DNA of 64,000 nucleotides. Origin: Anaeromyxobacteraceae bacterium (GTDB lineage: Bacteria > Myxococcota > Myxococcia > Myxococcales > Anaeromyxobacteraceae). Numbering within the stretch: position 1 is the first letter of the stretch; each line of letters starts with the position of its first letter. Shown here piece by piece: positions 41,203-63,656 of the stretch. The notes beneath the pieces are model-generated. The model saw only the letters and a list, made by a program, of their open reading frames with translations, did not search any database and was not told where the DNA came from. Both the position numbers and the translations under genes were made by a program. The stretch spans positions 320,001 to 384,000 of the forward strand of contig JASGHJ010000002.1 in NCBI GenBank assembly GCA_047602405.1. The letters are read 5' to 3'.

Positions 41203-41205
41203 CGG

Positions 41206-45636: not shown

Positions 45637-45638
45637 GG

Positions 45639-46673
45639 CTAGAAGCTCTTGCCGACGGAGACGCCGCCCGAGCGCGGGCCGACGTCGACCTGGGCACGGT
45701 AGCCGTGCCAGTCGGTGAAGAGGGCCTCGACGCCGGCGCCGATGCCGAGCACGCCGCCCGCGACGAGGAGCAGGTTGGCGTTCTTCGCGCGGCTCTTCGC
45801 GGTGGTCTCGAGGTCCTTGAGCTGCGCGCCGGGCACGCTCTCGGTGAGGGCGCGCTGCGCGAGGCTGTTGTACTGGTTCTGGGCGTCCTTCGAGAGGTAG
45901 CCCATGACCGCGCCGCCGCCGACCGCGGCGAGCGCGGCGGTCGCGGTGGCGTAGAACGGCCACTTCGGCAGCGGGGGCGGGTTGAGGCGCAGCGCGACGG
46001 CCTTGTCGACGCCGCGGGTCATGCCGGGGCGGAGGGTGCGCTCCTGGAAGAGCTCCTGCACCGCCGGGCCGACCGCCGAGAGGAGCTCCTCGCCGTTCGC
46101 GCGGGTGAGGCGCTTCGTGTGCGTGCCGGTGACGCGCGCGGTCCGCATGTTGATGCGCTTCAGCGTGAGGTTCGCGGTCTTGCCCTCGACGATGATGGAG
46201 GCGTGCACCATCTCGTCGGTGCCGAGCGCGCCGCCGATCTCGGCGAGGCAGGCCTCGTCGGCCTGGCACCCGAGCATCTGGCGCTGGTACTCGAACGAGA
46301 GCATCTCGCGGATCTCGCTCATGCCGATGGCGGAGACGCCGTCGAGCTTGCGGACCTCGGCGAGGAGCGAGCTCTCGAACAGCGTCGTCTGGCGCGGCGG
46401 GAGGTCACCGGTGACCTTCACGTCCGGCATGGCGAGGCGGAGCGCCTGCTTCGGCTTCGCGGCGGGCGCCGGCGCCGGGGGCGCCGACGGGCGGAGGTCC
46501 GGGGTGGGCGAGGCCGCGGCGGCGGGCGGCGCCATCGTGGGCGGCGGCGGCAGCGGCACCGCGGTGGACGGCTTCGCGGGCGCCGGGGCGGCCGGCTTCT
46601 TCGTGGCCTGCGCGGAAGCGAGCGCCGGCGCTGCGAGCGCGGCGGCGAGGAGGAACGGTGCGAGCTTGCGCAT
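45639..46673 (-). CDS. Exported protein with CsgG/TolB-N-like domain, hydrophobic helical hairpin and C-terminal beta-strand
   Basis: Signal peptide MRKLAPFLLAAALAAPALASA; Pro-rich linker; alpha/beta domain with LGC-x4-CLAEIGGALG; two hydrophobic helices; ends GGVSVGKSF. Confidence 0.6.
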   Translation of the reverse strand: MRKLAPFLLAAALAAPALASAQATKKPAAPAPAKPSTAVPLPPPPTMAPPAAAASPTPDLRPSAPPAPAPAAKPKQALRLAMPDVKVTGDLPPRQTTLFESSLLAEVRKLDGVSAIGMSEIREMLSFEYQRQMLGCQADEACLAEIGGALGTDEMVHASIIVEGKTANLTLKRINMRTARVTGTHTKRLTRANGEELLSAVGPAVQELFQERTLRPGMTRGVDKAVALRLNPPPLPKWPFYATATAALAAVGGGAVMGYLSKDAQNQYNSLAQRALTESVPGAQLKDLETTAKSRAKNANLLLVAGGVLGIGAGVEALFTDWHGYRAQVDVGPRSGGVSVGKSF

Positions 46674-46915: not shown

Positions 46916-46989
46916 CGGGGAGTGGCTCAGCCTGGTAGAGCACTTGGTTCGGGACCAAGGGGTCGCAGGTTCAAATCCTGTCTCCCCGA
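46916..46989 (+). tRNA. tRNA-Pro (anticodon CGG), integration target
   Basis: CGGGGAG/CTCCCCG acceptor stem, anticodon arm CTTGG-TTCGGGA-CCAAG, GGTTCAAATCC T-loop. CCA is not encoded. Confidence 0.96.
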
Positions 46990-48309
46990 CTCATGAAGGC
47001 CGCTGATCTTCGAGGAGAAATCCTCCAAGTCGGCGGCCTTCTTCTTTGTGCCCTGAGGGAGCCGCCCAACCGGCGCCCAACGCGGCGACCGGGCCGGGGA
47101 GTTCGCCGCCTCGAGCGATGAACTGGCGCCGCCCGGGACGAGGCCTTCCAGCGCGCCGAGCGGGAAGCGGGCGAGCCCCTCGCGCATGTCCTCGATGCTC
47201 AGGTGGCCGTAAGTCGAGGCCGTGAGCCGGACGTCCTTGTGGCGGAGGATCCGCTGCACCGTGACGAGCGGGACGCCGCACTTGAGGAGCAGGGTCGCCG
47301 TCGTGTGCCGGGCGTCGTGGAAGCGCACGTGGCGCGGGAGCGGCTTCGCCCAGAGCCGCATGTTGCACCGGGGGCAGCGACCGGGCTCGTTGCCGAGCAC
47401 TTCCTTGCTGTAGCCGCACCCCTTCCGACGGCACCGGTGGTCGTAGCCCGTGACGATTCCCGCCCGGCCGAGCGCACGGCGGAGGATCTCGTCGAGCGCG
47501 ACGTCCGCGCGGTGCATCGAGCCGTCCGGTCGAGGGAAGACGAGTCCCGAGGGCGAGGCGTCGATGGCGGCCTGGAGGAACGGCCTCAGCGGCTCTGCGA
47601 TGGGGATGAGGTCCGCGTGGCCGCCCTTCGTGGTGTCGTGCTCGTAGGATCGGCCGACGAGGATGGTGCCATCCCGCAGGCTGACCTCGCGCTTCCGGAG
47701 GCCGAGCAGCTCGCCCTTGCGCATGCCGGTGAAGAGGGCGGCCGCGAAGAGCGAGCGCCAGCGGGGGTCGAGGTGGACGAGAAGAGCCTCGGCTTCCTCG
47801 GGCTGCAGGTACTGCGGCGGGCGCTTCGGGACCTTTCGCCGCTCGACGAGCGCGGCAGGGTTCGCGCCGGACCAGACCTCGCGCCGGATCGCCTTCGCGA
47901 AGACCGTGTGGATGAGCCCGCGGAGGTGGTTCAGAGAGCGGGGGGCGAGCTCGTCGGTCTTCGCGACGAGGAGACCCTCGATGCGGGCGGGCGTGACCTC
48001 GCTCAAGGCCAGGCCACCCAGCGAGGGCAGGAGGTGCTTGCGCGCGACGCGATCGATGTCCGGCGAGCGGCGTCGGTGGCCGTACTCGGTCCACCACCAG
48101 GCGAAGAGCTGCGCGAAGGACATCGATGCCCGACTTTGCGGCAGCGGCTCGAGGCCGAGCCGCTGGCGATCGGCGAGGTGCTCGAGGTCGCGCGCGAGCA
48201 CGAGCGCCTCGGTCCTTGTCCGGCACTTGGTTCGCTTCTCGCGCCACCTGCCGCTCGCGTCGCGCCAGCGAGCCGACCAGAACTGCCCTCGCCTCGTCGC
48301 GGTGGCCAT
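46927..48309 (-). CDS. int: Tyrosine recombinase/integrase reading through attL
   Basis: Catalytic motifs TGMRKGE, TTKGG, FHDARHT, ILRH, STYGH; Zn-ribbon-like insert CRRKGC…CPRC; RBS AGGAG; stop codon lies inside the tRNA on the antisense strand. Confidence 0.93.
   Translation of the reverse strand: MATATRRGQFWSARWRDASGRWREKRTKCRTRTEALVLARDLEHLADRQRLGLEPLPQSRASMSFAQLFAWWWTEYGHRRRSPDIDRVARKHLLPSLGGLALSEVTPARIEGLLVAKTDELAPRSLNHLRGLIHTVFAKAIRREVWSGANPAALVERRKVPKRPPQYLQPEEAEALLVHLDPRWRSLFAAALFTGMRKGELLGLRKREVSLRDGTILVGRSYEHDTTKGGHADLIPIAEPLRPFLQAAIDASPSGLVFPRPDGSMHRADVALDEILRRALGRAGIVTGYDHRCRRKGCGYSKEVLGNEPGRCPRCNMRLWAKPLPRHVRFHDARHTTATLLLKCGVPLVTVQRILRHKDVRLTASTYGHLSIEDMREGLARFPLGALEGLVPGGASSSLEAANSPARSPRWAPVGRLPQGTKKKAADLEDFSSKISGLHESGRQDLNLRPLGPEPSALPG
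46948..46993 (+). repeat. attL core (46 bp)
   Basis: TTCGGGACCAAGGGGTCGCAGGTTCAAATCCTGTCTCCCCGACTCA, identical to 62733-62778. Confidence 0.95.
46995..47047 (+). terminator. Island-supplied terminator-like hairpin after tRNA-Pro
   Basis: GAAGGCCGC…GCGGCCTTC followed by ttcttt. Confidence 0.55.
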
Positions 48310-48667
48310 GGCTCCTACTTAGCCGCCCAGTCTGTCTGGGCGCCCAGGTTCGCGGAAGCCGGACCGAGCACGGTCGCGCGGATCTCGTCGGGTTTGAACC
48401 TGAGCATCCGGCCGACGCGCACGCACGGCAGCTCTCCGCGCTCCGCCGCCTTGTACACGTAGCTCACGGAGCACTTGATGAAGGCGGCGACCTCCTCTGC
48501 CGTCCAGAGCGCGTCGTTCAGGCTGTCGGTTTGCAGAACCTAGGGACCCCCGCCGCGTGAGTTTTGCAGAAGCATTCCCCCCTCGGCGCTAAGGGTTTTG
48601 CAGAAGGTTTCCCTCCCCCGTCGGCGTGACCAAGCAGCCACGATGCCTCCCTTCACGGGAGGCGGCG

Positions 48668-50242
48668 ATGGCGTTTCGCGAGGTCACGATGCTGGAGGCG
48701 AAGGAGATCCTGAGGCTGTGGCTGACGGGCGTGCCGAAGAGGCGCATCGCCCTGCAGCTCGGCCTCGACGTGAAGACGGTGCGCCGCTACCTCGCCGCCG
48801 CGCGGGCTCGCGGCGTGGAGCCGGCGCACGGCCTCGCCGCGCTCGACGACGCGCTCGTGGAGGCGGTGCTCGCCGCGACGCAGCCAGGCGGCGGGCGGCC
48901 GCGGGGCGAGGGATGGGCGGTCTGCGAAGCGCACCGCGAGACCATCGCGAGCTACCTCGACCGCGGCGTGCGGCTCACGAAGGTGGACCGGCTGCTCCGG
49001 CGCAGCGGAGTCGACGTCGGCTACGACACGCTCCGGCGCTTCGCGCTCGCCGAACTCGGCTTCGGCAAGGCCGTGCGGACCGTGCCGGTCGCGGACTGCG
49101 AACCGGGCGAGGAAGTCCAGCTCGACACGGGTTGGATGACGATGCTCGAGCCGGACCTGTTCGGGAAGCGGCGCCGCTTCCGGGCGTGGATCTTCACCGC
49201 CGTTCTCTCCAGGCACCGCTTCGTCTACCCGGTCTTCCACGAGACCACCATCACGGCCATCGAGGCGTGCGAGGCGGCGTGGGAGTTCTTCGGCGGGATC
49301 TTCAGGGTCGTCATCGTCGACAACACGAAGACCATCGTCGAGAAGGCCGACCCGGTGAAGCCGAAGCTAACGCAGGGCTTCCTCGAGTACGCGCAGGCGC
49401 GCGGCTTCGTCATCGACACCACCCGCGTGCGGAGCCCGAAGGACAAGGCCCGCGTCGAGCGCACGGTCCCCTCCGTTCGCGACGACTGCTTCGGCGGCGA
49501 GCGCCTCCTGACCATCGACGACGCCAGCGTCCGCGGGCGCCACTGGTCCCTCGAGGAGTACGGGATGCGCCGGCACGGGACGACCCAGCGGCTGCCACGC
49601 GAGCACTTCGAGGCGGAGGAGCGCCCGGCGCTCCTGCCGGCGCCGACCGCGCGGTACGACATCCCGGCCTGGTGCGAGCCGAAGGTTGGCCTCGATCAGT
49701 TCGCCGCGGTCGAGAGGGCCCTCTACTCGCTGCCGCTCGAGTACCGGAGGCGCCGGCTCGTCGCGCGCGCCGACAGCCTGACCGTGCGCTTCTACGACGC
49801 CGGCAGGCTCGTGAAGACCCACGCCCGCAGGCCCCCGGGCAAGAAGTCCATCGACCCGGCCGACTTCCCGACCGAGTCGCTCGCCTGCGCCCAGCGCGAC
49901 AGCGCGTACTTCGTCGCGCAGGCGCACGAGCACGGGCGGCACGTCGGGCGCTTCGCCGAGGCGCTCGTCGCGGGGCCGGCTCCGTGGACCCGCATGCGCC
50001 AGCTCTTCAAGCTCCTCGGCCTCGCGCGGAAGTACGGCGCCCGCCTCGACGTCTCGTGCAAGACCGCGCTCGACGCCGACATGGTCGACGTCTACCGGCT
50101 CGCCGAGATGGTGCGCCTCGACACGCGCCTCGAGCCGCCGCCCGCCAAGGTGATCCCGCTCGCCCGCTTCCTGCGGCCGGCGAGCCAGTACGCCCTCCCG
50201 CTCGCGCGCCGCGAGCGGCCCAACGAAGGAGACGACGCGTGA
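48668..50242 (+). CDS. istA: IS21 transposase IstA
   Basis: N-terminal HTH; DDE motifs PGEEVQLD, VDNTK, PKDKARVER. Confidence 0.92.
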   Translation: MAFREVTMLEAKEILRLWLTGVPKRRIALQLGLDVKTVRRYLAAARARGVEPAHGLAALDDALVEAVLAATQPGGGRPRGEGWAVCEAHRETIASYLDRGVRLTKVDRLLRRSGVDVGYDTLRRFALAELGFGKAVRTVPVADCEPGEEVQLDTGWMTMLEPDLFGKRRRFRAWIFTAVLSRHRFVYPVFHETTITAIEACEAAWEFFGGIFRVVIVDNTKTIVEKADPVKPKLTQGFLEYAQARGFVIDTTRVRSPKDKARVERTVPSVRDDCFGGERLLTIDDASVRGRHWSLEEYGMRRHGTTQRLPREHFEAEERPALLPAPTARYDIPAWCEPKVGLDQFAAVERALYSLPLEYRRRRLVARADSLTVRFYDAGRLVKTHARRPPGKKSIDPADFPTESLACAQRDSAYFVAQAHEHGRHVGRFAEALVAGPAPWTRMRQLFKLLGLARKYGARLDVSCKTALDADMVDVYRLAEMVRLDTRLEPPPAKVIPLARFLRPASQYALPLARRERPNEGDDA

Positions 50243-51025
50243 CCCCCGACCCGATCTCGCCGGAGCTCAGGACCGTGCTCCGGCGCCTGAAGCTCTCCCG
50301 GATGCTCGACACGCTGCCCGAGCGCTTTTCGCTCGCACGCCAGCAGAAGATGCCGCACCAGGACTTCCTCCTCCTCGCGCTCTCCGACGAGGCGCAGCGG
50401 CGGGACGGGCAGGCCGCCACGCTCCGTGCCCAGCGGGCCCACCTTCAGCCCGACTGCCAGCTCGAGCGCTGGGACGAGACCGCAAAGGTCGAGCTCGACC
50501 GCGCGCTCCTCAACGAGCTCGCCTCGCTGCGCTTCCTCGAATCGCGCCACCACGTCGCCATCGTGGGGCCGGTTGGCGTCGGCAAGACCTTCCTCGCGCA
50601 CGCGCTCGGCCACGTCGCCTGCCGGCGCGGGTACTCGGTGCTCGCGCTAACCGCCGACGTCATGCTGAAGAGCCTCAAGCACGCGAGGCTCACCCAGACT
50701 CACGAGAAGGAGATGCGCACGCTCCTCTCGGTCGACCTGCTCATCGTCGATGACTTCGGCCTCGACGCGATGGACGCCCAGGAGAGCCGCGATGCGCACG
50801 AGCTCATCTACGAGCGTCACCGCGCCGGCTCGATGATCGTGAGTGCGCTCCAACCGCGGCCCCGACGAGTGGCTCGCCACCTTCGCCGATCCGATGCGCG
50901 CGCAGGCCGCCATCGACCGCTTCACCTCGAACGCCTACGACCTCGTCATCGAGGGCGAGTCGTATCGCGCCCGGCTCAAGCCCGGGCGGAAGGCTGGACA
51001 GCTGACCGAGAAGAAGGCCAAGTAG
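50239..51025 (+). CDS. istB: IS21 helper ATPase IstB (frameshift ~50845)
   Basis: GTGA overlap with istA; Walker A GPVGVGKT; Walker B LLIVDDFG; the SNR…AIDRF…GESYR tail is in another frame. Confidence 0.88.
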
Positions 51026-51144
51026 GAGTCGTCACGCCGACGCGGAGCCGGGGGCAAGCTTCTGCAACGGCGGGGTCCCATCCCTCTGCAAATCGACATT
51101 CAGGCGCCGCCGCTCGAGGTTGCTGCTGGGGCTCGTCATGCTCG

Positions 51145-51501
51145 TCACCTCCCGGCCCGTCCCGGGGGAGGCGGCTTTCGCTCGAACCCCGGACCCTTCT
51201 CGAGGACCTGGTGGTACCGCGCCATGAGCACGCGCTGCAGGTACCGCCTGCGGTCCACTCCGAGCGCCTTCTCGTCTGCATCGAGCAGCTCGCCGACGGG
51301 ATCGGGCGGCAGGCCGCTCCAGGTCCAGAAGTCGTGCGCGATGGTGACCATGAGCTCGTTCATGGACCACCCGCGTCGCTCGGCTTCTTCCTGCAGCCAG
51401 TGGCCGAGGTCGCTCGGGAAGCGGAAGGTCACGACCGTCTTCTCGGTCGTAGGGGTGCCGGAGCGTGCGGGGAGGTCCGAGGGATGCCTGGAGGACGCCA
51501 T
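51145..51501 (-). CDS. Ribbon-helix-helix (Arc-like) DNA-binding protein
   Basis: VVTFRFPSDLGHWLQEEAERRGWSMNELM RHH pattern. First gene of the RHH-xis-int run. Confidence 0.65.
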   Translation of the reverse strand: MASSRHPSDLPARSGTPTTEKTVVTFRFPSDLGHWLQEEAERRGWSMNELMVTIAHDFWTWSGLPPDPVGELLDADEKALGVDRRRYLQRVLMARYHQVLEKGPGFERKPPPPGRAGR

Positions 51502-51540
51502 GTAGGAGTGAAGCCTACATGGCCAAGCGGTGAAGTGCAA
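51497..51540 (-). promoter_or_regulatory. Promoter TTGCAC-17-TAGGCT with a perfect 10-bp inverted repeat over the -10 box and start codon
   Basis: GCCATGTAGG-agtgaag-CCTACATGGC at 51497-51523. Confidence 0.6.
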
Positions 51541-51573
51541 CGGTAACGTTTCAAAGCGCAACGAAACCGCTGC

Positions 51574-52137
51574 CTAGGCGAGGTCGTGCAGCTTCCTCAA
51601 CTCCGCCACCGTCTGAACGAGGCCACGGCTCTCGAGCGTGTCCAGCAGGTCGGGCAGCGAGGTCGGGGGACTCTTCAGGGCCGCCGCCTGTCCCGCGACT
51701 GTCCGCACGACCACGCCTGGATCCAGGGAGAGTAAGTGGCGGAGGAACGTGTCCGGATGCTGGGCCTCGACGGCGTACGGGGCCAGAGTGCTCACCGGGA
51801 AATCGTGCAGGTTGGTGGTGACGATGACCTGGGCGCTGCAGCGGATGGCGGCGGCGAGGACGTGGCGGTCGCCCTCGTCCGGTAGGACGAGACCGTCGAT
51901 GAGGGGCTCATACCCCGTGACCAGGCCATCGGGGACCGCGCGCAGCATCAGCTGCCGAGTCCTCTCGAGCTTGCCCTCGAGGTCGGGGCGTGACGCGACG
52001 ATGTTCCGGAAGCACTCGTCGAGGATCTGATCGGTCCAGCGCGCCCGGAAGAGGCCGGTCGTCGCGAGCCGCACCAGCAAATCCCGGATCGACGCCGGGT
52101 AGAGCACGCACGCGTCGTAGACGACGGCGAAGGCCAC
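51574..52137 (-). CDS. PIN domain (VapC-like) toxin
   Basis: Motifs VVYDACVLYP, WTDQILDE, DEGDRHVLAAA, IVTTNLHDFP. Confidence 0.88.
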   Translation of the reverse strand: MAFAVVYDACVLYPASIRDLLVRLATTGLFRARWTDQILDECFRNIVASRPDLEGKLERTRQLMLRAVPDGLVTGYEPLIDGLVLPDEGDRHVLAAAIRCSAQVIVTTNLHDFPVSTLAPYAVEAQHPDTFLRHLLSLDPGVVVRTVAGQAAALKSPPTSLPDLLDTLESRGLVQTVAELRKLHDLA

Positions 52138-52138
52138 G

Positions 52139-52600
52139 TCAGTAGTCGAGCCCCAGGCGCTGCGCCTCGGCCGTCAGCTCATCCAGGACACCCTGCCGCT
52201 CGGTATCGTCCTGCTGCTTGTACCGGACGAGATCCTCGAACCGGACTCTGCGGCGGGTTCCGACCGCGCGGAAGGGGATCCGGCCCTCCTCGAGCAGCTT
52301 CACCATGAACGGGCGCGACACGTTGAGGAGGTCGGCGGCCTGCTGGGTGGTCAGCTCCGCGTGGACGGGGACGATGGTGACTGCGTTGCCGTTGGCCATC
52401 TCGCCGAGGATCCGGACGAAGAGCTCGAAGGCTGCCCTCGGGACCGTGACCCGCGTGTCGTGATCCCCCTTGGCGACCACGGTCACGTGGGAAGCCGCCC
52501 CCTTTCGCTTGCGAAGGAACGGCGCCAGCGATCGGGCGGCTTCGGCCGCTTCGGCAGCCACGTCGGGAGAGGGTCGGGTGAGCTCGGTCAGGGGGGTCAT
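52139..52600 (-). CDS. Excisionase-type HTH antitoxin
   Basis: ELTTQQAADLLNVSRPFMVKLLEEGRIPF…GTRRRVRFEDL, immediately upstream of the PIN gene. Confidence 0.85.
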   Translation of the reverse strand: MTPLTELTRPSPDVAAEAAEAARSLAPFLRKRKGAASHVTVVAKGDHDTRVTVPRAAFELFVRILGEMANGNAVTIVPVHAELTTQQAADLLNVSRPFMVKLLEEGRIPFRAVGTRRRVRFEDLVRYKQQDDTERQGVLDELTAEAQRLGLDY

Positions 52601-52685
52601 GTTCGGCCTCGATTCTCGAACGAAATATACGAAACAAACGAATCAAGCGCAACGGCCCCCCCCCCGGCCCGAGTCGTCGTGAACC

Positions 52686-55171
52686 TCAGTCGAGGTCCTC
52701 GGGCATGACCCCATCGGGACCGTCGTACTCGATCGTCAGCTCCTGCGGCCGTTCGCGCGACGTGACCGGGACCGCCTCGTAGCCGATCGCCCTGTAGCCG
52801 CGGAGCCGCTTCGCGAACATCTTCGCCAAGACCGGGACGTGGACATCCACGTAGTCGAAGATGCGGACCTCGCTCTTGCCCGCGTGAGCGCGGTGCAGCC
52901 GGCCGGCGTACTGCACGAGCGTGCCTCGCCAGGCGACCGGCAGCGCAAGGACGAGCGTGTCGAGCCGCGGGTCATCGAATCCCTCGCCGATGAACCTGCC
53001 CGTGGCGAGCAGCGCCCGTTCCTCGGTCGAGGGGATCTCCGCGAGCTGGGCGAGCGCGAGCCTGCGGTCCTTCGCCGACATGCCGCCGTGGAGGACCACG
53101 AGGTGCCTCGCGGCGGGGCGGAGCTTAGCCGCGAGGTACTCCAGGTGGTCGCGCCGTTCCGTGAGCACGAGCGGCGAGCGCCCCGCCGCGAGCGCGGCGA
53201 TGGCGTCGTCGAGGATGAGCGCGTTCCGGCAGTCGTCCGCCGCCAGTCGTCCATAGAGCGCCTGGATGCCAAGCTCGCGCGTCCAGTCGGCACGGAACTC
53301 CGTCTCGCGCACGACGAGCTGATGTGAGAAGCCCGCCGCGGCGGCCTGAGCGCGCGCACCGATGACGTGCCGGACGGGCCCGAGCTGCATCTCCAAGATC
53401 GGGTGGTGTCCGTCGCGCCGCCTTGGCGTCGCGGTGAGCCCGAGCACATGGCGTGCCTTCACCTCCGAGAGGACCCGCTCGAACGACACCGCGGAGACGT
53501 GGTGACACTCGTCCACCACGACGTGTCCGTACCCGGCGACGAGAATCGCTCACCTGGCCCTTGTGCACGAGGCTCTGGACCGTCGCGACGTCGATGCGGC
53601 CGGTCGGTTTCTTCTTGCCACCCCCGATGACGCCGATGCTCTTCGGGTCCAGGTCGAGGAAGGCCGCGAGTTGAGCGCGCCACTGATCCACGAGGGGTCG
53701 CCGATGCACGAGCACGAGCGTGCTGACGTTCCGCTTCGCGATGAGCTGAGCGGCCAGGACGGTCTTCCCGGTTCCCGGTGGCGCGACCAGTACCCCGATG
53801 TCATGCCGTGCGAGCGCGTCGGAGGCGAGCGCCTGCTCCGAAGTGAGCGTCCCGTGGAAGCGCAGACCCAGCGCTTGGCCCGTGACGCGCTCGTCCCGGA
53901 TCACGAGCGTGCTTCCGCAGGAGGCGGCGAGCTCCTCGAGAATCGGAGAGGCAGCCGCGGGGGAGCGACAGGTGCAACGCGTCCTCCTCGGCGCAGGTGA
54001 TGATGCGTGGGATCCCGCCCGTCGCGAACCTCATGGCCTGCTTCTCGAAGAATACCGGGTTCTGAAACGCGGCGAGCCTCCGGACCTCGGCGGTGAACGC
54101 CGGAGACAGGCCAGCCCGTGGCACGAAGATCCGCTGACCGAGCACGACCTCCAGCCGTTCCGGTGCGCCGCCCGCGGGTAGGGAGTGGCGAATGCCCGAG
54201 GGCGGCCGGTGCCAGGGTGCCTGGTCATCGTCGGCCATGGCAGCGAAGCGGACGCCGAGCACCCGGCCCTGCCTGAGGGCCTCGCGGGCAACGAGTGCGA
54301 CGGTCTCGCCCGGAATCCTCGGCTGGCGGGCGAGGAAAGCCCACTGGTCCGCGAACGGCTCGAACGCCTCGTCGATGAAGACGGAGTTCCCCTTCTGGCG
54401 AGCAGCCCTCTGCAGCGGCAATGCGATGAGATTCCCGAATCCGCCGCGCGGGACGGTGTCCTGGTTCGGGAAGAGGCGGTCGTACGACTTCATTCCGATC
54501 TCGGACCGCCGGGACATCGCCTCGGTGAGGAGGTACGAGGCCATCTGGCGGGCCGCGACGGCCGGGACCTGGCCCGCGAAGAAGAACCACGCGTGCGCCC
54601 CGTTGCCCGAGCGGGACCGCTCGACCGCGACCGGGAGGCCGGCCGCGCGCGCGGCCTCGGCGAACGCGGCGACGTCGCCCTGCCACCCAGGCCCGTCGAA
54701 GTCCACCGCGACGAAATGGCAGCGGTCGCCTTCGACGAGCGGGTACACACCGGCGACGATCAGTCCCTGGAGGTGATCGACGAGGACGCGGTCGGTCACG
54801 GGCACGAACGCCTTCACGGGGCACTCGCCGCACTTGACCCGCGGCTTCTCGCAGCCCGCCTTCCACTCCCGCGCGCAGTGGGGCGAGTAGCCGGACTTGC
54901 CGGTCCGAGAATTCTCCCAGCGGCGCGGGTAGACGTCGGCCCTGCCGCGGAACAGCTCGGCGAAGAGCGACACCTTCTCGGCCTGGGTAGTCGGGACCGG
55001 CACGCCATCGGAGCTGGGCGGCGTCACGACAATGGCCGGAGCAAGTGCGGCCTGGGCGCTCCGGAGGGTCTCGATCCGCTTCACGAGTCGAGACCGCTCG
55101 GCGTCGAGCTCCGCGAGGCGGGCCTCCGCCTGCGTGAGATCGTCGGCGGGCTGGCGAGGTGTCCCGGGCAT
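52686..55171 (-). CDS. AEP primase-like domain fused to SF2 (DEAD/DEAH, ResIII-like) helicase, TOTE-associated type (frameshifts ~53941 and ~53544)
   Basis: AEP motifs VDFD, ERSRSGNGAHAW, GNLIALPLQ; helicase motifs APPGTGKT, VDECHH, GLTATP, GEGFDDPRLD, QYAGRLHR. Confidence 0.82.
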
Positions 55172-55456
55172 CAGGCCGAATCCTATCCGGTCCGCCCGAC
55201 GACGATGCGTTGTAGTTGAGGCGGTCGCCCGCGGAGTTCACGGCTGACGGGCCGACGTTCACGGAACGTTGACGTCAGCGCTGACGTCGGATCTTCGGCA
55301 CCCGCTCGGCAGCCCGAATGGAGCTGCCGAACAGGGTGCCGAGTCGGTTCGGCACCCTGGTAGGCAGGCCATTCGGCAGGCAAACTCCATCCAAGCGTCC
55401 GAAAACCGCTGTCCTTGCTCCACCCACCGGGCGAGGTCGTTCGGGATGGAGGGAGG

Positions 55457-55520
55457 GGGTTCCAGTGTCCCGCCCCCTCTCTCCCAACCACTTGAGAGAG
55501 GGGTCGGGACACTGGAACCC
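55457..55520. repeat. Long inverted repeat (27-bp arms, 1 mismatch, 10-nt loop)
   Basis: GGGTTCCAGTGTCCCGCCCCCTCTCTC / GAGAGAGGGGTCGGGACACTGGAACCC. Confidence 0.9.
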
Positions 55521-55816
55521 AGAGGAAGAAGAGGTGTGGAGGGTGGGTGGGGCAAGGACGGGGGAGGGTGAGGAAGGGAAGAGTGGACGGAATGGGAGAA
55601 GGGGATGGGGAAGGTCGGAAGGAAGAAGAAGGAAGGCAGTTGGAGAAGGGAATGGAGTTGAGGGGGATGTCGACAGGCGAGGCGAGAACAGGGGGAAGCG
55701 GAGACGAGGCAAGTTGGCCGAGAGAGAGCCGGGGAAGGGCGGAGTGACGGGCGGGCTGAGGCGATGGTTCACCCAGTACGGTTTTCGCGAGCTAGAGTGG
55801 CCCCGGACCAACGCGC

Positions 55817-57214
55817 ATGCTCTTGACCTTGACCACGACCGCCCGGCCGGCGACCGACCTCGGCCACTTGCTTCACAAGAACCCGGCACGGGTGCAGTCA
55901 TTCGAGCTCAGCTTCGGGAAGGCCCACGTCTTCTACCCGGAGGCGTCGGAGGACCGCTGCACCATGGCGCTCCTGCTGGACGTCGACCCGGTGGGCCTGG
56001 TCCGCGGTCGGTCCGGCCCCTCTGGCGAAGGCGCCCTCGAGCAATACGTCAACGACCGACCCTACGTGGCGTCGTCGTTCCTGACGGTGGCCATTTCCCG
56101 GCTCTTCGGGACGGCGCTGTCCGGGCGCAGCAAGGAGCGGCCGGAGCTCGTCGATCGTGCCCTCCCGTTCGAGGTGCGGCTCCCGGTGGTTCCGTGCCGT
56201 GGCGGCGAGCCGTTTCTCCGCAAGCTGTTCGAGCCGCTCGGCTACCAGGTCGAGGCAACGACCATCGAGCTCGACCCTGCCGTGCCCGCCTGGGGGACCA
56301 GCCGCTACCTCTCGGTCACACTGCGTGGCGAGCACAGGCTGGCCGACCTGCTGTCGCACGTCTACGTCCTGGTGCCCGTGCTGGACGACGACAAGCACTA
56401 CTGGGTGGGCGACGAGGAGGTCGAGAAGCTGGTTCGCCACGGGGAGGGCTGGCTGGCGACCCACCCGGAGAAGGAGCACATCGCCCACCGCTACCTGGCC
56501 CACCAGAAGAAGCTCGCGTGCAGCGCGCTCGAGCAGCTGGTGGCCGAGGAGGCCCCCCACGCCGAAGAGGAGGCCATCAGCCATGGCGCCGAGGAGGCGG
56601 CGCTCGAGAAGAAGCTGAGCCTCAACGACGTGCGTCTGGACCGGGTGGCCGAGGTGCTGGCTGCTTCAGGCGCCAAGCGGGTCCTCGATCTCGGCTGCGG
56701 AGAGGGGAAGCTGCTGCGCCAGCTCCTCAAGCACAAGGCCTTCGAGGAGATCGTCGGGCTCGACGTGTCCCACCGCGCCCTGGAGACCGCGGCGGAGCGC
56801 TTGCGGCTGGAGCGCATGTCCGAGGCGCAGCAGAAGCGGCTCAAGCTGCTGCACGGTTCGCTCACGTACAGGGACGCTCGGCTCGCTGGGTACGACGCCG
56901 CGGCGGTCGTCGAGGTGGTCGAGCACCTGGATCCGCCCAGGCTGGCTGCGTTCGAGCGAGTGGTCTTCGAGTCGGCGCGGCCGGGGACCGTGGTCCTGAC
57001 CACGCCCAACGTCGAGTACAACGTGCGCTTCGAGAATCTTCCGGCGGGGCGGCTGCGGCACAAGGACCACCGCTTCGAGTGGACCCGGGCCGAGTTCGAG
57101 GGGTGGGCCACTGGCCTGGCCGCGCGCTTTGGCTACGCCGTGAGGTTCGAGCCGCTCGGGCCCGTCGACGAGGAGGTCGGTGCGCCGACCCAGATGGCGG
57201 TGTTCACGCGATGA
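55817..57214 (+). CDS. hen1: 3' terminal RNA ribose 2'-O-methyltransferase Hen1
   Basis: Motifs MLLTLTTT…ATDLGHLLHKNP, QYVNDRPYVASS, VLDLGCGEG, VEVVEHL, TTPNVEYN, RHKDHRFEWTR. Confidence 0.95.
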   Translation: MLLTLTTTARPATDLGHLLHKNPARVQSFELSFGKAHVFYPEASEDRCTMALLLDVDPVGLVRGRSGPSGEGALEQYVNDRPYVASSFLTVAISRLFGTALSGRSKERPELVDRALPFEVRLPVVPCRGGEPFLRKLFEPLGYQVEATTIELDPAVPAWGTSRYLSVTLRGEHRLADLLSHVYVLVPVLDDDKHYWVGDEEVEKLVRHGEGWLATHPEKEHIAHRYLAHQKKLACSALEQLVAEEAPHAEEEAISHGAEEAALEKKLSLNDVRLDRVAEVLAASGAKRVLDLGCGEGKLLRQLLKHKAFEEIVGLDVSHRALETAAERLRLERMSEAQQKRLKLLHGSLTYRDARLAGYDAAAVVEVVEHLDPPRLAAFERVVFESARPGTVVLTTPNVEYNVRFENLPAGRLRHKDHRFEWTRAEFEGWATGLAARFGYAVRFEPLGPVDEEVGAPTQMAVFTR

Positions 57215-59772
57215 CCATCACCATCCCTGAGCTGTCGCTCGTCGTCCTCATCGGCCCCTCCGGCGCCGGGAAGTCCTCCTTCGCGCGCAAGCACTTCAAG
57301 GAGACGGAGATCCTCTCCTCGGACCGCTGTCGGGGGCTGGTTTCGGACGACGAGAACTCCATGGAGGCGACCAAGGACGCCTTCGAGGTGCTGCGCTTCA
57401 TCGCGACGAAGCGACTCGCCGCAGGCCGCCTCACCGTCATCGACGCCACCAACGTGCAGCAGGAGGCGCGCAAGCCCCTGGTCGCCCTCGCCCGGGAGTT
57501 TCACTGCCTGCCGGTGGCCATCGCGCTCGACGTGCCAGAGAAGGTCTGTCAGGACCGCAACCGCACCAGGCCAGACCGGAACTTCGGCAGCCACGTCGTC
57601 CGCCAGCAAGCCCAGTCCCTTCGACGGAGCCTCCGCGGCCTGGAGCGCGAGGGCTTCAGGCACGTTCACGTCCTCCACGGTCCCGAGGAGATCGATGGCG
57701 TCGTCATCGAGCGCCAGCCGCTCTGGTGCGACCTCAAGGGCGAGAGGGGCCCCTTCGACATCATAGGCGACGTCCATGGGTGCCTCGACGAGCTCCAGAT
57801 GCTGCTGGCGAAGCTCGGGTATCAGACTGCCCCTTCGGAGAGCGCCGTCGGTGGCCTGGTCGCACGCCACCCGGAGAGCCGCAAGGTGGTGTTCCTCGGC
57901 GACCTCGTCGACCGGGGACCGAACGTCGCAGGAGTCCTGCGACTCGCCATGAACACGGTCGCCGCTGGGGCGGGCCTGGCCGTGCCCGGCAACCACGACA
58001 TCAAGCTCCTGCGGAAGCTGCGCGGGAAAGACGTGAAGCTCACCCACGGTCTCGCCGAGACGGTTGCGCAGCTCGAGCCGGAGCCCGCGGAGTTCAAGCG
58101 TGAGGTTGCCGCCTTCATCGACGATCTCGTCTCGCACCTCGTCCTCGACGGCGGTCGGCTCGTGGTGGCGCACGCGGGCATGAAGGAATCGATGCAGGGC
58201 CGCGGGTCCGGCAAGGTCCGGGAGTTCGCCCTGTACGGCGAGACCACCGGGGAGACAGACGAGTACGGCCTCCCGGTTCGGTACGACTGGGCCTCGGAGT
58301 ACCGCGGCAAGTCGAGCGTGGTGTACGGCCACACGCCCGTGCCCGAGGCCGAGTGGTTGAACAATACCATCTGCGTGGATACGGGCTGCGTCTTCGGCGG
58401 GAAGCTGACCGCGCTCCGCTGGCCGGAGCGCGAGTTGGTGGAGGTCCCCGCAGCGCGGATGTACTTCGAGCCAGCCAAGCCGCTGGCCCGGGCGGGCGTG
58501 GCCACGCTCTCGGCGCAGCACGCCAACGACACCCAGCTGGACCTGGCGGATGTCTCGGGCAAGCGTGTGATCTCGACGCGCCTCTTCCACAACGTAACCA
58601 TCCGAGAGGAGAACTCGGCCGCCGCCCTCGAGGCGATGAGCCGGTTCGCCACTGACCCACGCTGGCTCATCTACCTGCCACCGACGATGTCGCCGTCCGA
58701 GACCACGAAGGAAGCCGGGCTGCTGGAGCATCCGCGCGAGGCGCTCGACTACTTCGCGAAGGAGGGGGTGGCCCGCGCCGTCTGCGAGGAAAAGCACATG
58801 GGCTCGCGCGCGGTCCTGGTCGTCTGCAGGGACGCGGCGGTGGCGGAGGCCCGCTTCGGCATCGACTCCGGCGAGGTCGGGGTCTGCTACACGCGCACTG
58901 GCCGGCGGTTCTTCAACGACCGCGCGCTGGAGGCCGCATTCCTGGATCGAGTGCGAGCGGCGCTCGATGCCTCCGGCTTCTGGGAGGAGATGTCCACCGA
59001 TTGGGCCTGCCTCGACTGCGAGTTGATGCCGTGGTCGCTCAAGGCGCAGGAACTCCTCCGGGACCAGTACGCCTCGGTGGGGGCCGCCGCACGTTCCGGG
59101 CTGCCCCCGACCATCGCGGCGCTCGAGGCCGCCTCGTCGCGCGGGGCAGAGGTGGCGGGTCTCCTGACCCTGGCGCGGACACGTCTCGACCTGACCGACC
59201 GCTTCGCGGCGGCGTACCGGCACTACTGCTGGCCGGTGAAGTCGGTGGACGATCTCCGCCTGGCGCCGTTCCACCTGCTCGCGACCGAGGGGAAGGTGCA
59301 CGTCGACCGCGACCACGTCTGGCACATGGAGACGCTGGCGAAGGTCTGCAGGGCCGACCCGGCGCTGCTCGTGGCGACGCCGTACCGCGTGGTCGACCTG
59401 TCCGACCCAAACTCTCGCGAGGACGCAATCCGTTGGTGGGCGGAGCTCACCGGGCGCGGCGGCGAGGGCATGGTGGTGAAGCCGCATGAGTTCACGTTCC
59501 GAGGCCGCCGGGGGCTCATCCAGCCAGCGGTGAAGTGCCGGGGCCCGGAGTACCTGCGGATCATCTACGGCCCCGAATACACGCTCCCCGAGCACCTCGA
59601 GCGCCTGCGGTCCCGCGGCCTGTCCAACAAGCGGTCGCTGGCGATCCGGGAATTCGCGCTGGGCATGGAGGCCCTGGAGCGGTTCGTGCGCAGGGAGCCG
59701 CTGCGGCGGGTCCACGAGTGCGTCTTCGGCGTCCTCGCGCTGGAGAGCGAGCCAGTCGATCCGCGGCTCTAG
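57211..59772 (+). CDS. pnkp: Polynucleotide kinase-phosphatase-ligase Pnkp
   Basis: ATGA overlap with hen1; kinase GPSGAGKS; phosphatase GDVHG, GDLVDRG, GNHD; ligase EEKHMGSR, EGMVVKP; ends EPVDPRL. Confidence 0.95.
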   Translation: MTITIPELSLVVLIGPSGAGKSSFARKHFKETEILSSDRCRGLVSDDENSMEATKDAFEVLRFIATKRLAAGRLTVIDATNVQQEARKPLVALAREFHCLPVAIALDVPEKVCQDRNRTRPDRNFGSHVVRQQAQSLRRSLRGLEREGFRHVHVLHGPEEIDGVVIERQPLWCDLKGERGPFDIIGDVHGCLDELQMLLAKLGYQTAPSESAVGGLVARHPESRKVVFLGDLVDRGPNVAGVLRLAMNTVAAGAGLAVPGNHDIKLLRKLRGKDVKLTHGLAETVAQLEPEPAEFKREVAAFIDDLVSHLVLDGGRLVVAHAGMKESMQGRGSGKVREFALYGETTGETDEYGLPVRYDWASEYRGKSSVVYGHTPVPEAEWLNNTICVDTGCVFGGKLTALRWPERELVEVPAARMYFEPAKPLARAGVATLSAQHANDTQLDLADVSGKRVISTRLFHNVTIREENSAAALEAMSRFATDPRWLIYLPPTMSPSETTKEAGLLEHPREALDYFAKEGVARAVCEEKHMGSRAVLVVCRDAAVAEARFGIDSGEVGVCYTRTGRRFFNDRALEAAFLDRVRAALDASGFWEEMSTDWACLDCELMPWSLKAQELLRDQYASVGAAARSGLPPTIAALEAASSRGAEVAGLLTLARTRLDLTDRFAAAYRHYCWPVKSVDDLRLAPFHLLATEGKVHVDRDHVWHMETLAKVCRADPALLVATPYRVVDLSDPNSREDAIRWWAELTGRGGEGMVVKPHEFTFRGRRGLIQPAVKCRGPEYLRIIYGPEYTLPEHLERLRSRGLSNKRSLAIREFALGMEALERFVRREPLRRVHECVFGVLALESEPVDPRL

Positions 59773-59793
59773 GGGCAGCGAGGTGGGAAGCCG

Positions 59794-60819
59794 ATGAAGC
59801 TCTCGGAGACTCACAGGAATCTCCTTCGGGCCGTGCTGGAGGGCACGCTTGGCGACCGACGCCCGCCGGTGCAGGAGTTCCGCATCGAGAATGAGAAGGA
59901 CCGCGGTGCGATCGACGAGCTTGAGCAGTCAAAGTTCCTCGCGAGAGACGACGGGGAGTACCGCCTTACCCTGGACGGCTTGTACGGAGCGGACTCAGAC
60001 GCCGCGCGGGGAGTTATCCGGACGTTCAATGCGTTGCTGCCGTCGCTGAAGAACGCGTACCGCGCGGATCCCTCGAAGACGTGGGCAGCCTCGGAGATCG
60101 ATGCTCTGGCTCGCGAATCGGGTCTCTTCGTCAAGGAGCATGCGACGGCAAGGGCGCTTGGAATCCTCTCGTCGGAGGTCCACGTCTGGTCCGGACTGTC
60201 ACCTCCGGCCGCCGGGATGGGCAAGACGCGCCGATGGTTGGTCGACTCGGTGACCTTCATCGAGAGGGTCCTCGATCAGGAGCCCTTGGCTGAGGCGCGA
60301 GAGGTCGAGCTACGAGACCCAGAGGAGACCAGCGGCTCCCTCCAGTTTGCTGCAGCGAGATCGAGCACGAAGAGGAATCGGGTGGTCGAGGCAGCTCCGT
60401 ACCTACCCTTGGAGGTCATACCGAAGAGCATGGGGGTGATCCGCAGCGTCCTCGACGAGGCGAATCGGTGCTTCTCGAACGAGTGCTACAACGGCTGCGC
60501 GGCGCTTCTGCGTCGTGTTGTTGAACTCCTCTTGGTCGAGGCGTACAGGCGAAACGGGATCGCGGATGCGATCCTCGACACTGACGGAGAACGGCTGCTT
60601 CCGCTGGGCCGCATTATCGGGCGCCTCACGGCGGGGCAAGACCTGAGCCTGTCGCCTGTGGCACGCAAATCGCTGGAGAAGGTCAAGCTCCTCGGGGACC
60701 TCGGCGCTCACCACAAGTATGCCCTCATACGCAGAGGTGACCTTGACCGACTCCACGATGGGCTGCGGCCTACGTTGGAGGAGTTGGTGGTGGTTGAAGG
60801 CACTCGGCGCCCAGGATGA
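59794..60819 (+). CDS. Protein with C-terminal DUF4145/HEPN-like domain
   Basis: EANRCFSNECYNGCAALLRRVVE…LEKVKLLGDLGAH pattern. The N-terminus is not recognised. Confidence 0.6.
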   Translation: MKLSETHRNLLRAVLEGTLGDRRPPVQEFRIENEKDRGAIDELEQSKFLARDDGEYRLTLDGLYGADSDAARGVIRTFNALLPSLKNAYRADPSKTWAASEIDALARESGLFVKEHATARALGILSSEVHVWSGLSPPAAGMGKTRRWLVDSVTFIERVLDQEPLAEAREVELRDPEETSGSLQFAAARSSTKRNRVVEAAPYLPLEVIPKSMGVIRSVLDEANRCFSNECYNGCAALLRRVVELLLVEAYRRNGIADAILDTDGERLLPLGRIIGRLTAGQDLSLSPVARKSLEKVKLLGDLGAHHKYALIRRGDLDRLHDGLRPTLEELVVVEGTRRPG

Positions 60820-60914
60820 GCAGGTCATGGCAATGCGAAACGCGATTCAGGCGACTTAGGAGAGGCTGAGGAGGAACGGGTGGACGTGTCCGCGCTGGCA
60901 GGTAGACTGCTCTC

Positions 60915-62358
60915 GTGATCCCCGAGGTGCGACGGCCGGACGCGCGGCGCCAGGGGCTCGCCAGCGCATTTGACCGCGTAGTGAAAGAGCGGTCCCTGCG
61001 TCTCCTTGTCGACTGGGATTCAATCCCCGATGGACCTGTGGCTCGAGTGCTGGAGGAACTGGCCAAACACCCCGACCTAGAGCTCCTTGGAACCCGATCG
61101 TCGGACGCACGCCGAGTCGAATTCAGGCACGGTGGAGGCAACGGGTATGACGGCGCTGTCCTTACCGCGCGAGCCAGTGACGAAGTATCGATCGTCACTC
61201 TTTCGGAAACCGAACGGCACCGCGATGCGGCGCGACGGGCTGACGGGCACATAGACGAGCGTCGACTTCAAGAGAGTCATCTGGGCGCCCTTGCCGCAAG
61301 AGACGGGGTCGATGCGTTGGTGACCGGTAGTCGGTCGCTACTGGCCCGCGATCTCAGGTTGCTCCTCTTGGGACGTCCCAACATCGTGAACCCCGAGGAG
61401 GCGGTCGCACTGGCCGGACTCTTCCTTCGCTCGCGTGGCGAGTACAGCCGACGCCCGAGGGTCCCTGGCCTTGTTGACTGGAGGTCCGCCGAGGACTTCT
61501 ACAGGGCACTTGTTTCGACGCTGGTGCCTTCAAGTCGCTTCTGGTTGTCGGCTGCGATTCCTCGAACGCAAGAGGACCATTTCAGCAGGGAGTTTGAGGC
61601 TCGAGCCTCTGTAGCTAAGTCGATTGAATCGCAGCTGACTCGGGCTCTGCGTGCACGGGATGAACTACAGGTGCAGCGCAGGGGAACGCTCGCTTCCGAC
61701 TCGCCCTACCAGAATCCTCGCCCGATTCGAGTATGCCCTCGTATCGCTCTCGGGCGCACTGGATAGCCTCGCCATGCTGTGTTCGATGGCCTACGGCATC
61801 GAGAAGAGCCGAACTGATTCCTGGCGAGGCAAGAAATGGAGGAGACGGCTTCGCGAAGACCCGCGGACCACAGGAGTGGCTGCGGTTGCGGACCGTACGA
61901 GCACCCAGCGCCTCCTGTCGTTGCTTGGTGAGCTCCGCAACACTGTGCATGGACCCACGCTAGATCCCGTGGTTAGCAATGACCGGAGACGCACCTACGT
62001 CCGAGTCCCACCGATTCGAGTCCCGCCCCTCGAACAAGAGCTCCAAGCTTGGCCCGAAGTGCCTCTTGCCTGGTGGGGCATCGAGTTTGAACGGCGCAGT
62101 GCGCCGCTCAACCTCGAGCACGGCGATGGATTCGTGACGGCCACGTTCTCATCGGGTCCCAACGACCCCGTGTGGGCGATCAACGTCGATCCTGGCGTGT
62201 GCCTCGAGCGGGTGCTGGTGTTCGCGACGCAGGTGATCGACGAGCTTGGCGCAGCCATCGACTGGACCAGGTTCGGCGCCCCAGCCGTGCGAGAGCCGCT
62301 TGAGGAGGATGACTTCCTGAACGAGAGGCTCCGACTCCTTGGAGGAGTGTGGCTATGA
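60915..62358 (+). CDS. PIN-like plus HEPN (RxxxH) fusion protein (frameshift ~61713)
   Basis: LLVDW, GVDALVTG…NIVNPEEA (PIN-like); ELRNTVHG (HEPN-like). The frame is restored by removing one A in cagaatc. Confidence 0.55.
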
Positions 62359-62396
62359 GCCCGTGGCGCGGAATTCGACGTGTCGCCATGGGTGCC

Positions 62397-62732
62397 CTAC
62401 ACCCGGCGATGCGCCTCCAACGCTCTGGCCAAGCTCATCGGGTCGAAGCGCACAGCGTTGCCGACTCGGACATGAGGGAGCTCGCCGCGCTCGACCATGG
62501 AGTAGACCGTGGCGCGGCAGACGTTCAGGCGCGCCGCGACCTCCCTGACCGTGAGCAGCCGATCGACTCCGAGCATCAGGTCGGCCCGCCCAACGGGCGC
62601 CCAAGATTCGGTGCGAATCGGTCCGTTCGGTGGGGCTCGGGAGGGTGGCGACGCGGATGCGTCTTCCGATTTGTCCATGGAATCCGGGCGCGCGCGACTC
62701 GCTGCCACCTCGTCCGCGAACGGATCAGGGCC
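62397..62732 (-). CDS. Detached integrase C-terminal tail with excisionase-type HTH_17 (possible internal start 62576)
   Basis: In frame with the att-encoded ESGRQDLNLRPLGPE; ends LLTVREVAARLNVCRATVYSMVERGELPHVRVGNAVRF…HRRV. Confidence 0.82.
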   Translation of the reverse strand, partial: GPDPFADEVAASRARPDSMDKSEDASASPPSRAPPNGPIRTESWAPVGRADLMLGVDRLLTVREVAARLNVCRATVYSMVERGELPHVRVGNAVRFDPMSLARALEAHRRV

Positions 62733-62778
62733 TTCGGGACCAAGGGGTCGCAGGTTCAAATCCTGTCTCCCCGACTCA
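62733..62778 (+). repeat. attR core (46 bp; 3' part of tRNA-Pro)
   Basis: Identical to 46948-46993. Confidence 0.95.
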
Positions 62779-62779
62779 G

Positions 62780-62820
62780 AAGCCCTCGAAACCTGACCGG
62801 TTTCGGGGGCTTTGTCTTTT
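62780..62820 (+). terminator. Rho-independent terminator, probably the original tRNA-Pro terminator
   Basis: AAGCCCTCGAAACC-tgacc-GGTTTCGGGGGCTT followed by tgtctttt. Confidence 0.7.
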
Positions 62821-62882
62821 GAGCCCCCGGCTGGCACCGAGCCGCTCTCCGCGACCTTCCTGCACGGCGCACCTCCGAGGCG

Positions 62883-63656
62883 TCACCCCAGCATCGGGGC
62901 CGCGCGGAGCTCACCGAGGAGCGCCTGCGGCGTCACGCCGGCGATCGCGCGGAACTCGGCGATGAGGTGCGCCTGGTCGTAGTAGCCGGCCGCGGCGGCG
63001 ATGCCCGCCCAGCCCTCCCGCCGCCCCGCGCGCGCGGCGCCGAGCGCGCGATGGAACCGGATGAGCCGGGCGAACGTCTTCGGGCCGACGCCCACGGTCT
63101 CGCGGAAGACGCGACGGAGGTGTCGCTCGCTCACGCCGAGATCGGCGGCGACCGCGTGCACCGTGGCACGCGGGAGGCGCTCCGCGGCGCTGACGGCGAG
63201 CCGCGCGGCGGCGCGGAGTCCGTCGGCGGCCCCGAGCCGTTCGTTGATGGCGCCTTCGAGTGCCGCGGCCGCGTCGCTCGCGTCGCGCGCGGCGGCGAGG
63301 CGATCGAGGAGGCGGCGCGTCGCCGCGGAGCCCCAGAGCTCTTCGAGCGCGACGATGCGCCCGCCGAGGGCGGAGGCGCGCACGCCGAGCACCGCCTCCG
63401 ATGCGCCGAGCTGGAGCCGCGCCGTCACGGCGCGGTGCCCGCCGCGGAGGAGCTTCCGGTGCACCGTCCGTCGTACGCCCATGGCGTGCACGTCGAGGCC
63501 GCCCCGCGCCGACGGCCCGAACCGGGCGACGATCTGGACCTCCGGACGCGGGATCGAGATGCCCGGCCCGTCCTCGTCGCACGCGTTCACGAGCAGCGCC
63601 GCCACGGCGGTCGCGCCCTGCGCGATGGGAGCATGGAGGACGGCGGGGGCCTGCAC
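62883..63656 (-). CDS. AraC family transcriptional regulator
   Basis: Motifs LGVSERHLRRVF…GVGPKTFAR, AGYYDQAHLIAEFRAIAGVTP. Confidence 0.88.
   Translation of the reverse strand: MQAPAVLHAPIAQGATAVAALLVNACDEDGPGISIPRPEVQIVARFGPSARGGLDVHAMGVRRTVHRKLLRGGHRAVTARLQLGASEAVLGVRASALGGRIVALEELWGSAATRRLLDRLAAARDASDAAAALEGAINERLGAADGLRAAARLAVSAAERLPRATVHAVAADLGVSERHLRRVFRETVGVGPKTFARLIRFHRALGAARAGRREGWAGIAAAAGYYDQAHLIAEFRAIAGVTPQALLGELRAAPMLG

Follow-up and report, generated by a model that had tools for sequence, protein, structure and literature searches.

The DNA analysed here is a window of 64,000 nucleotides from an Anaeromyxobacteraceae bacterium (assembly GCA_047602405.1, contig JASGHJ010000002.1, positions 320,001 to 384,000), and the element in question is a 16-kb mobile island (15,785 bp) inserted at a proline transfer RNA gene, tRNA-Pro(CGG), together with the tyrosine integrase (Int) that it encodes. 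The island is bounded by an exact 46-bp direct repeat, the core of its attachment site (att): the left copy, attL, is the 3′ part of the tRNA gene, and it is matched without mismatch at 62733-62778, attR (Table 1). The integrated int gene, open reading frame (ORF) 48309-46927, runs through attL and takes its last six residues and its stop codon from the antisense strand of the tRNA, giving a protein of 460 amino acids (aa). On the attR side this frame continues without a stop for 111 aa (62732-62397) and enters a helix-turn-helix (HTH) domain of the HTH_17 family at nt 62558-62409 (Pfam E 3e-14; TIGR01764 “excise”, E 8e-13). Joining the ends in silico produces a 565-aa Int with an HTH_17 end; the first 454 residues are common to both forms and are followed by 111 aa in the circle and by 6 aa in the integrated form. 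A sequence-only reading of the same DNA had proposed the frame through attL, the excisionase-like continuation at attR and the long and short forms, and all of these were confirmed.

Int has predicted arm-binding, core-binding and catalytic domains. Its catalytic motifs end near residue 375, with the att some 70-85 residues beyond the catalytic tyrosine, and all catalytic parts are retained in the integrated gene. As far as can be read from the sequence, the Int-HTH fusion is encoded only in the attP (circular) or tandem-junction form. The AlphaFold model made for P0019, a full-length relative found in nature, has a three-strand domain at the N terminus, core-binding and catalytic domains and a folded HTH; linker residues 389-501 are disordered, and the best fold match is lambda Int.

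The complete predicted attP (arm, core and arm; ~250-300 bp) is contained within the int reading frame. The P′ and P arm repeats share 19 of their 22 bases (shuffles reach 15 at best), and the arm geometry with its fixed spacing is kept in 23 of 24 elements, with 18-22 of 22 bases matching, above shuffles. The repeat sequence itself differs element by element. By comparison with Mx8, a phage with tandem 11-bp repeats near its core, we infer that these are arm-type Int sites; the arm spacing therefore accounts for the length of the tail linker. A second, weaker motif, a short direct repeat, is also conserved on the P′ side, at distances of 17-54 bp from the core and mostly at 22-39 bp; its information content is 11.7 versus 7.8-8.5 in shuffles, and it is poorly kept in this island copy. 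It may be a site for excisionase (Xis), and it is also a plausible local target for the tail HTH.

To assess conservation we examined the DNA surrounding 40 Int matches, out of 56 that lie in other genomes (among 60 relatives), plus 82 further loci and four additional regions. This gave 36 elements with both ends identified, of which two lie in the genome of the window itself. The counts leave out duplicate loci between sets, loci whose available DNA holds no attR, one locus whose attL is cut by the contig end (L118), one known from its junction only (L079), an inverted fragment near L019 and an own-genome island at tRNA-Gly that has a different Int. In the first 30 elements an HTH lies at most 600 nt from attR in 25, and is in frame with a core-reading Int in 23 of these; linker shuffles put the chance of an HTH after attR being in frame and stop-free at ~0.08 per element (~2 of 25 expected), a comparison that is no formal test, as the elements are related and the frame counts overstate their independence. 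Six further elements added five with an HTH, four of them in frame. The frame between core and HTH, on which the sequence-only reading hinged, is therefore kept in 27 of the 30 elements with an HTH after attR. Pfam HTH_17 was confirmed for 21 of the 25 tails submitted. Among the in-frame cases every phase of the tRNA antisense strand is used, and nine tRNA types serve as targets (Pro CGG/GGG, Arg CCG/ACG, Gly CCC/GCC, Asp, Val and Met), so it is the fusion that is conserved and not the core peptide. The ratio of nonsynonymous to synonymous substitution rates (dN/dS) is equally low in the HTH and the Int core (0.14 each) when this copy is compared with its closest relative, L004, and reaches 0.72 in the linker; three other pairs give 0.0 versus 1.88, 0.20 versus 0.60 and 0.49 versus 0.96 for HTH versus linker. 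Judged by these comparisons, the fusion frame and the HTH are under purifying selection across the Int family.

Full-length homologues of the joined protein were sought and found: natural one-ORF Int-HTH proteins make up 9 of the best 120 homologues, and others are encoded at genome loci L087, L096 and L107; at L087 two elements meet in tandem, and the distal Int continues into the tail of the neighbouring element. The Int family is matched (E <= 1e-40) in 121 of 251 genomes sampled from the class, a tally that takes in the window's own genome (G000) and one unpublished genome (G117) used for no other claim. At four loci (L093, L095, L119 and L139) the repeat common to the island ends is longer and takes in sequence before the core; in the last three this sequence contains a 3′ piece of an int gene, perhaps a remnant of collapsed tandem arrays. 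The own-genome tRNA-Gly(CCC) island (C1:514865-531110) has two att fragments, the first with a 115-aa HTH tail, and the different integrase-like gene near its attL stops ~900 bp before the core.

The best phage match is the Int of Mx9 (AY247757, AAP78666), with 32% identity over residues 38-386 (E 1e-39). Like the island Int it has a four-cysteine insertion, also present in Mx4 Int, and a tRNA-derived att core read antisense within int (tRNA-Gly, nt 2001-2034 of AY247757), after which comes an HTH_17 domain at aa 489-537. The Mx9 tail is 49% identical to the island tail over 37 aa and fits the tail profile (score 61.6) better than that of the upstream Xis-like proteins described below (41.2), placing it in the same class as the island tail. 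Mx9 is a 53-kb phage, whereas no phage structural genes were detected on the island; its core is the 5′ half of tRNA-Gly and not the 3′ half of tRNA-Pro, and its core-to-HTH distance is ~10 residues as opposed to ~55. An HTH profile search found no xis-like gene in the 1.2 kb upstream of Mx9 int. Julien reportedly described in 2003 that the Mx9 attP lies in int. This layout is a close precedent, so the island system is not a new kind, and the novelty implied by the sequence-only reading was too large. In the Int tree, the long branches of Mx9, Mx4 and Mx8 meet at a root that the tree does not resolve.

The switch of Mx8 and Mx9 has been known since the 1990s; Mx8 targets tRNA-Asp, and its excision also requires xis. 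The sequence-only comparison with Mx8 was apt: in its IntP/IntR (IntX) pair, as in the island, attP lies inside int and a ~112-aa tail is swapped for a short one, the short form reportedly being less active. Mx8, again a phage, has an Int distant from that of the island (26% identity, E 1e-6). The island shares with the Mx8/Mx9 type an att core in the 3′ coding region of int, a complete catalytic domain upstream of it, a long tail exchanged for a short host-derived one, an antisense-read tRNA core and flanking tandem arm repeats, and its tail HTH_17 of Mx9 class gives it the Mx9 order of Int, att and HTH_17. A review calls the integration principle of Mx9 similar to that of Mx8 (PMC6070905), and the Islander paper allows for integrases extending across attP, citing Mx8 and SSV (PMC4383910). 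In the archaeal “suicidal” tyrosine integrases of SSV1, pTN3 and pT26-2, as PMC8371274 describes them, att is translated inside int and tRNA target switching goes with frame compensation; there integration parts Int(N) from the catalytic Int(C), whereas in the island all catalytic residues stay together with the N-terminal part and an accessory tail is lost. Streptococcal rumA-targeting integrases also have their C terminus swapped by integration, but belong to the serine family and use a protein-coding target, with no HTH tail in the part of the description available (PMC4701971), in contrast to the tyrosine Int, tRNA target and HTH found here. The conserved HTH tail and the breadth of the family were not found in full-text literature (including the accessible parts of PMC5861418, PMC8138268 and PMC11963761), a search that did not reach the primary Mx8 and Mx9 papers, which may mention the HTH.

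In 24 of 32 loci, int is immediately preceded on its 5′ side by a separate xis-like HTH gene, in the position at which Mx8 has its xis-like HTH gene (Uoi/Xis), annotated as an excisionase. Its recognition helix is unlike that of the tail and it is of a distinct class by profile score, both being of HTH_17 fold. Because most relatives have this gene, of a separate sequence class, next to int, the tail, excisionase-type in the sequence-only reading, is probably not the excisionase. The xis-like gene of the present island is split by an IS21-family insertion of 2,575 bp. For this reason, and because no transfer genes were detected on the island and its primase-helicase gene reads as three pieces, this copy is probably stuck, its excision needing a helper in trans, and the switch that had been proposed for it probably does not operate unaided. 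A second island of the family in the same genome (C2:909009-920943, tRNA-Arg(CCG)) has an Int reading through the core, an in-frame 117-aa HTH tail at attR and an apparently intact upstream xis-like frame. It may be able to supply Xis to the tRNA-Pro(CGG) island.

On balance we favour the view that this is an Mx9-type island whose attachment site sits in the linker between the Int catalytic domain and a winged-helix tail, such that integration severs the tail and excision would restore it, and that the tail likely helps the free circle to integrate. In the long Int, the tethered HTH would bind the P′ arm, or bend it, and assemble the complex of attP with the chromosomal site attB; the long form would thus likely favour attP × attB, a built-in switch toward insertion. 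Short Int and the separate xis-like protein would carry out excision, as reported for Mx8, which is also the model for the presumed difference in activity between the two forms.

A number of observations weigh against this view. The HTH is absent from 6 of the 36 two-ended elements, out of frame in L012 and in the distal element of G072:C13, and unfused in L081. In the Archangiaceae-type clade (L069, L071, L079 and L081) Int ends immediately ahead of the core, and for L079 and L081 the HTH ORF is seen to start at an ATG overlapping the Int stop. Two proteins, P0036 and P0047, have Int fused to an HTH without any att peptide. The Mx8 tail is without HTH_17, so the Mx8 results carry over by analogy only. 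Nor were circles found: no sequencing run holds the island (best share 0.18); no attR-to-attL joint occurs among the joints shown, which cover 4 of the 24 listed runs and say nothing either way; no terminal overlap exists in the seven loci checked (whole contigs only for L096, L105 and L125); there was no plasmid match; and viral contigs gave three weak matches to a single-protein query and two to an alignment query, neither of the two with a fused HTH.

Some of these exceptions are informative in themselves. Since the HTH has its own ATG in the Archangiaceae-type clade, covalent tethering is not universal; there, circle formation would likely couple expression of the unfused proteins by translational coupling, which by eye fits the overlap of stop and ATG better than minus-one frameshifting does. 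That fusions without att are ancestral is unsupported, as P0036 and P0047 nest within the att-in-int group (95/89 support); the contig of P0047 was not recovered in a metagenome scan for such fusions. In a sister clade (L026, L027 and L035; 100/98), tails of 90-109 aa are open after attR, with no HTH and no Pfam match, nearer in style to the Mx8 tail. Another variant, in which Int reads into a tRNA 3′ fragment in the sense direction, is seen at L032 and L148 and in P0013, P0014, P0030, P0059 and P0071; its partner end was not found.

An alternative that we regard as unlikely is that the tail makes long Int a circle-specific transcription regulator, repressing or activating the xis-int operon or other element genes and leaving recombination unaffected. 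Winged-HTH directionality factors can also regulate promoters, as the accessible part of PMC11963761 describes for RdfS, and the separate, probably coupled HTH ORFs of the Archangiaceae-type clade would suit action in trans. Against this reading, the fusion is retained in nearly all HTH-bearing elements, and the P′-side motif, itself weak in this copy and possibly an Xis site, offers a plausible local target. Quite unlikely, in our judgement, is an anti-excision role, in which the tail, as a paralogue of Xis, would compete with the filament that Xis forms on the P′ arm, or poison it, and new circles would then re-integrate or go no further. Xis sites in lambda-type systems lie between core and arm. 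Candidate sites are so placed here, and tail and Xis combine one fold class with different recognition helices; however, excision is decided in the integrated state, from which the tail is not made except at tandem junctions. It is highly improbable that the HTH is a stand-alone excisionase started at an ATG (62578-62576) and sharing the frame incidentally. This codon does lie three codons before a domain matching TIGR01764, and IS21 has disrupted the island's own xis-like gene; but a start codon ahead of the HTH is not conserved, none being present within 23 codons of it in L004 or within 24 in L014, L017 and L022, no sigma-70-type promoter match occurs at 62300-63100, frame conservation is far above chance and most elements have their own xis-like gene.

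The remaining features of the island are listed in Table 1. A hairpin motif similar to that at 46995-47049 is also present in relatives, and the hairpin beyond attR is probably the original terminator of the host tRNA. The sequence-only reading had called the element a non-phage defence island. Its first half stands, as no virion or structural gene was found among the island ORFs scanned (Pfam, NCBIfam and PHROGs), and the island is not a temperate phage or prophage on that evidence; the cargo is defence-like, but “defence” rests on family names, a PADLOC single-protein scan giving partial matches only (PrimPol, helicase, methyltransferase and mad1). In relatives, of whose 74 called ORFs 62 were scanned, the cargo includes SIR2, SMC-like, methyltransferase, Mrr, MmeI, reverse transcriptase, HamA and efflux proteins, and one relative has a capsid gene. 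The Hen1-Pnkp pair is complete as mobile cargo and lies near a PIN-domain gene. Frameshifts affect istB and the AEP-TOTE primase-helicase gene (window 50239-55171), and either decay or assembly error could explain them. Just outside the island, at 36871-45697, very long ORFs contain an internal repeat with a 4.4-kb period and 73-84% identity.

Table 1. Features of the tRNA-Pro(CGG) island and its ends (positions in the window)
Feature	Position	Strand	Basis
tRNA-Pro(CGG), integration target, intact at attL	46916..46990	+	ARAGORN
Tyrosine integrase, integrated form, 460 aa	46927..48309	-	ORF and domain predictions
att core, left copy (attL), 46 bp, antisense translation within int	46948..46993	+	exact repeat
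Island-supplied hairpin and T-run 3′ of tRNA, inside int coding sequence; likely terminator	46995..47049	+	sequence
Predicted P arm site, two tandem repeats of 11-bp period, 111 bp from core end, within int	47059..47080	-	
3′ part of stand-alone xis/uoi-like HTH gene, without own ATG/GTG/TTG start	48315..48516	-	PHROGs excisionase matches
IS21-family element (istA, frameshifted istB) inside xis-like gene, 7-bp target duplication	48524..51098	+	
5′ part of xis-like gene	51099..51139	-	same gene order and matching sequence in L004
Small gene conserved upstream of xis-int (L004 has it too), no family match	51145..51561	-	
Cargo: HTH_17 protein and PIN-domain protein, toxin-antitoxin-like pair	51574..52600	-	
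Cargo: AEP-TOTE primase and helicase gene, three reading-frame pieces	52686..55171	-	
Cargo: Hen1 and Pnkp RNA-repair pair	55817..59772	+	TIGR04074, TIGR04075 above cut-off
Cargo: DUF4145 protein and two ORFs without family match	59794..62358	+	
Int tail stranded at attR, 111 aa: ~55-aa linker, then HTH_17	62397..62732	-	same frame open, Pfam
Predicted P′ arm site, 128 bp from core end, within tail linker	62583..62604	-	
att core, right copy (attR), 46 bp	62733..62778	+	exact repeat
Terminator-like hairpin beyond attR	62779..62813	+	

Taking the tail as an aid to integration of the circle, a bolder proposal is possible, which we put forward tentatively: the tail would be a directionality factor specific to integration, a counterpart of Xis working in the opposite direction, joined to Int only when attP exists. 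This would be the conserved molecular mechanism behind the Mx8/Mx9 switch, and a large family of small tRNA islands, present in roughly every second genome of the class, would share it. If so, neighbours in a tandem array that read one tRNA core in different phases would also be unable to borrow each other's tails. In the tandem arrays G072:C13 and G146:C1, each at one tRNA, neighbours are in different phases and the distal Int gains no neighbour HTH, and in G196:C18 they are in the same phase, giving a chimeric Int-HTH; with three arrays only (loci L153-L158), this is anecdotal. For annotation, the layout means that many “excisionase” genes at myxobacterial island ends are stranded integrase tails, and many annotated integrases short forms. 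No account of what the exchanged Mx8/Mx9 tail does was found in the literature; a recognisable DNA-binding domain makes the question testable, and dozens of natural variants and candidate P′ arm sites are available for addressing it at the level of domains. Mx8 and Mx9 are standard genetic tools in myxobacteria, for which the family described here offers integrases for at least nine tRNA sites.

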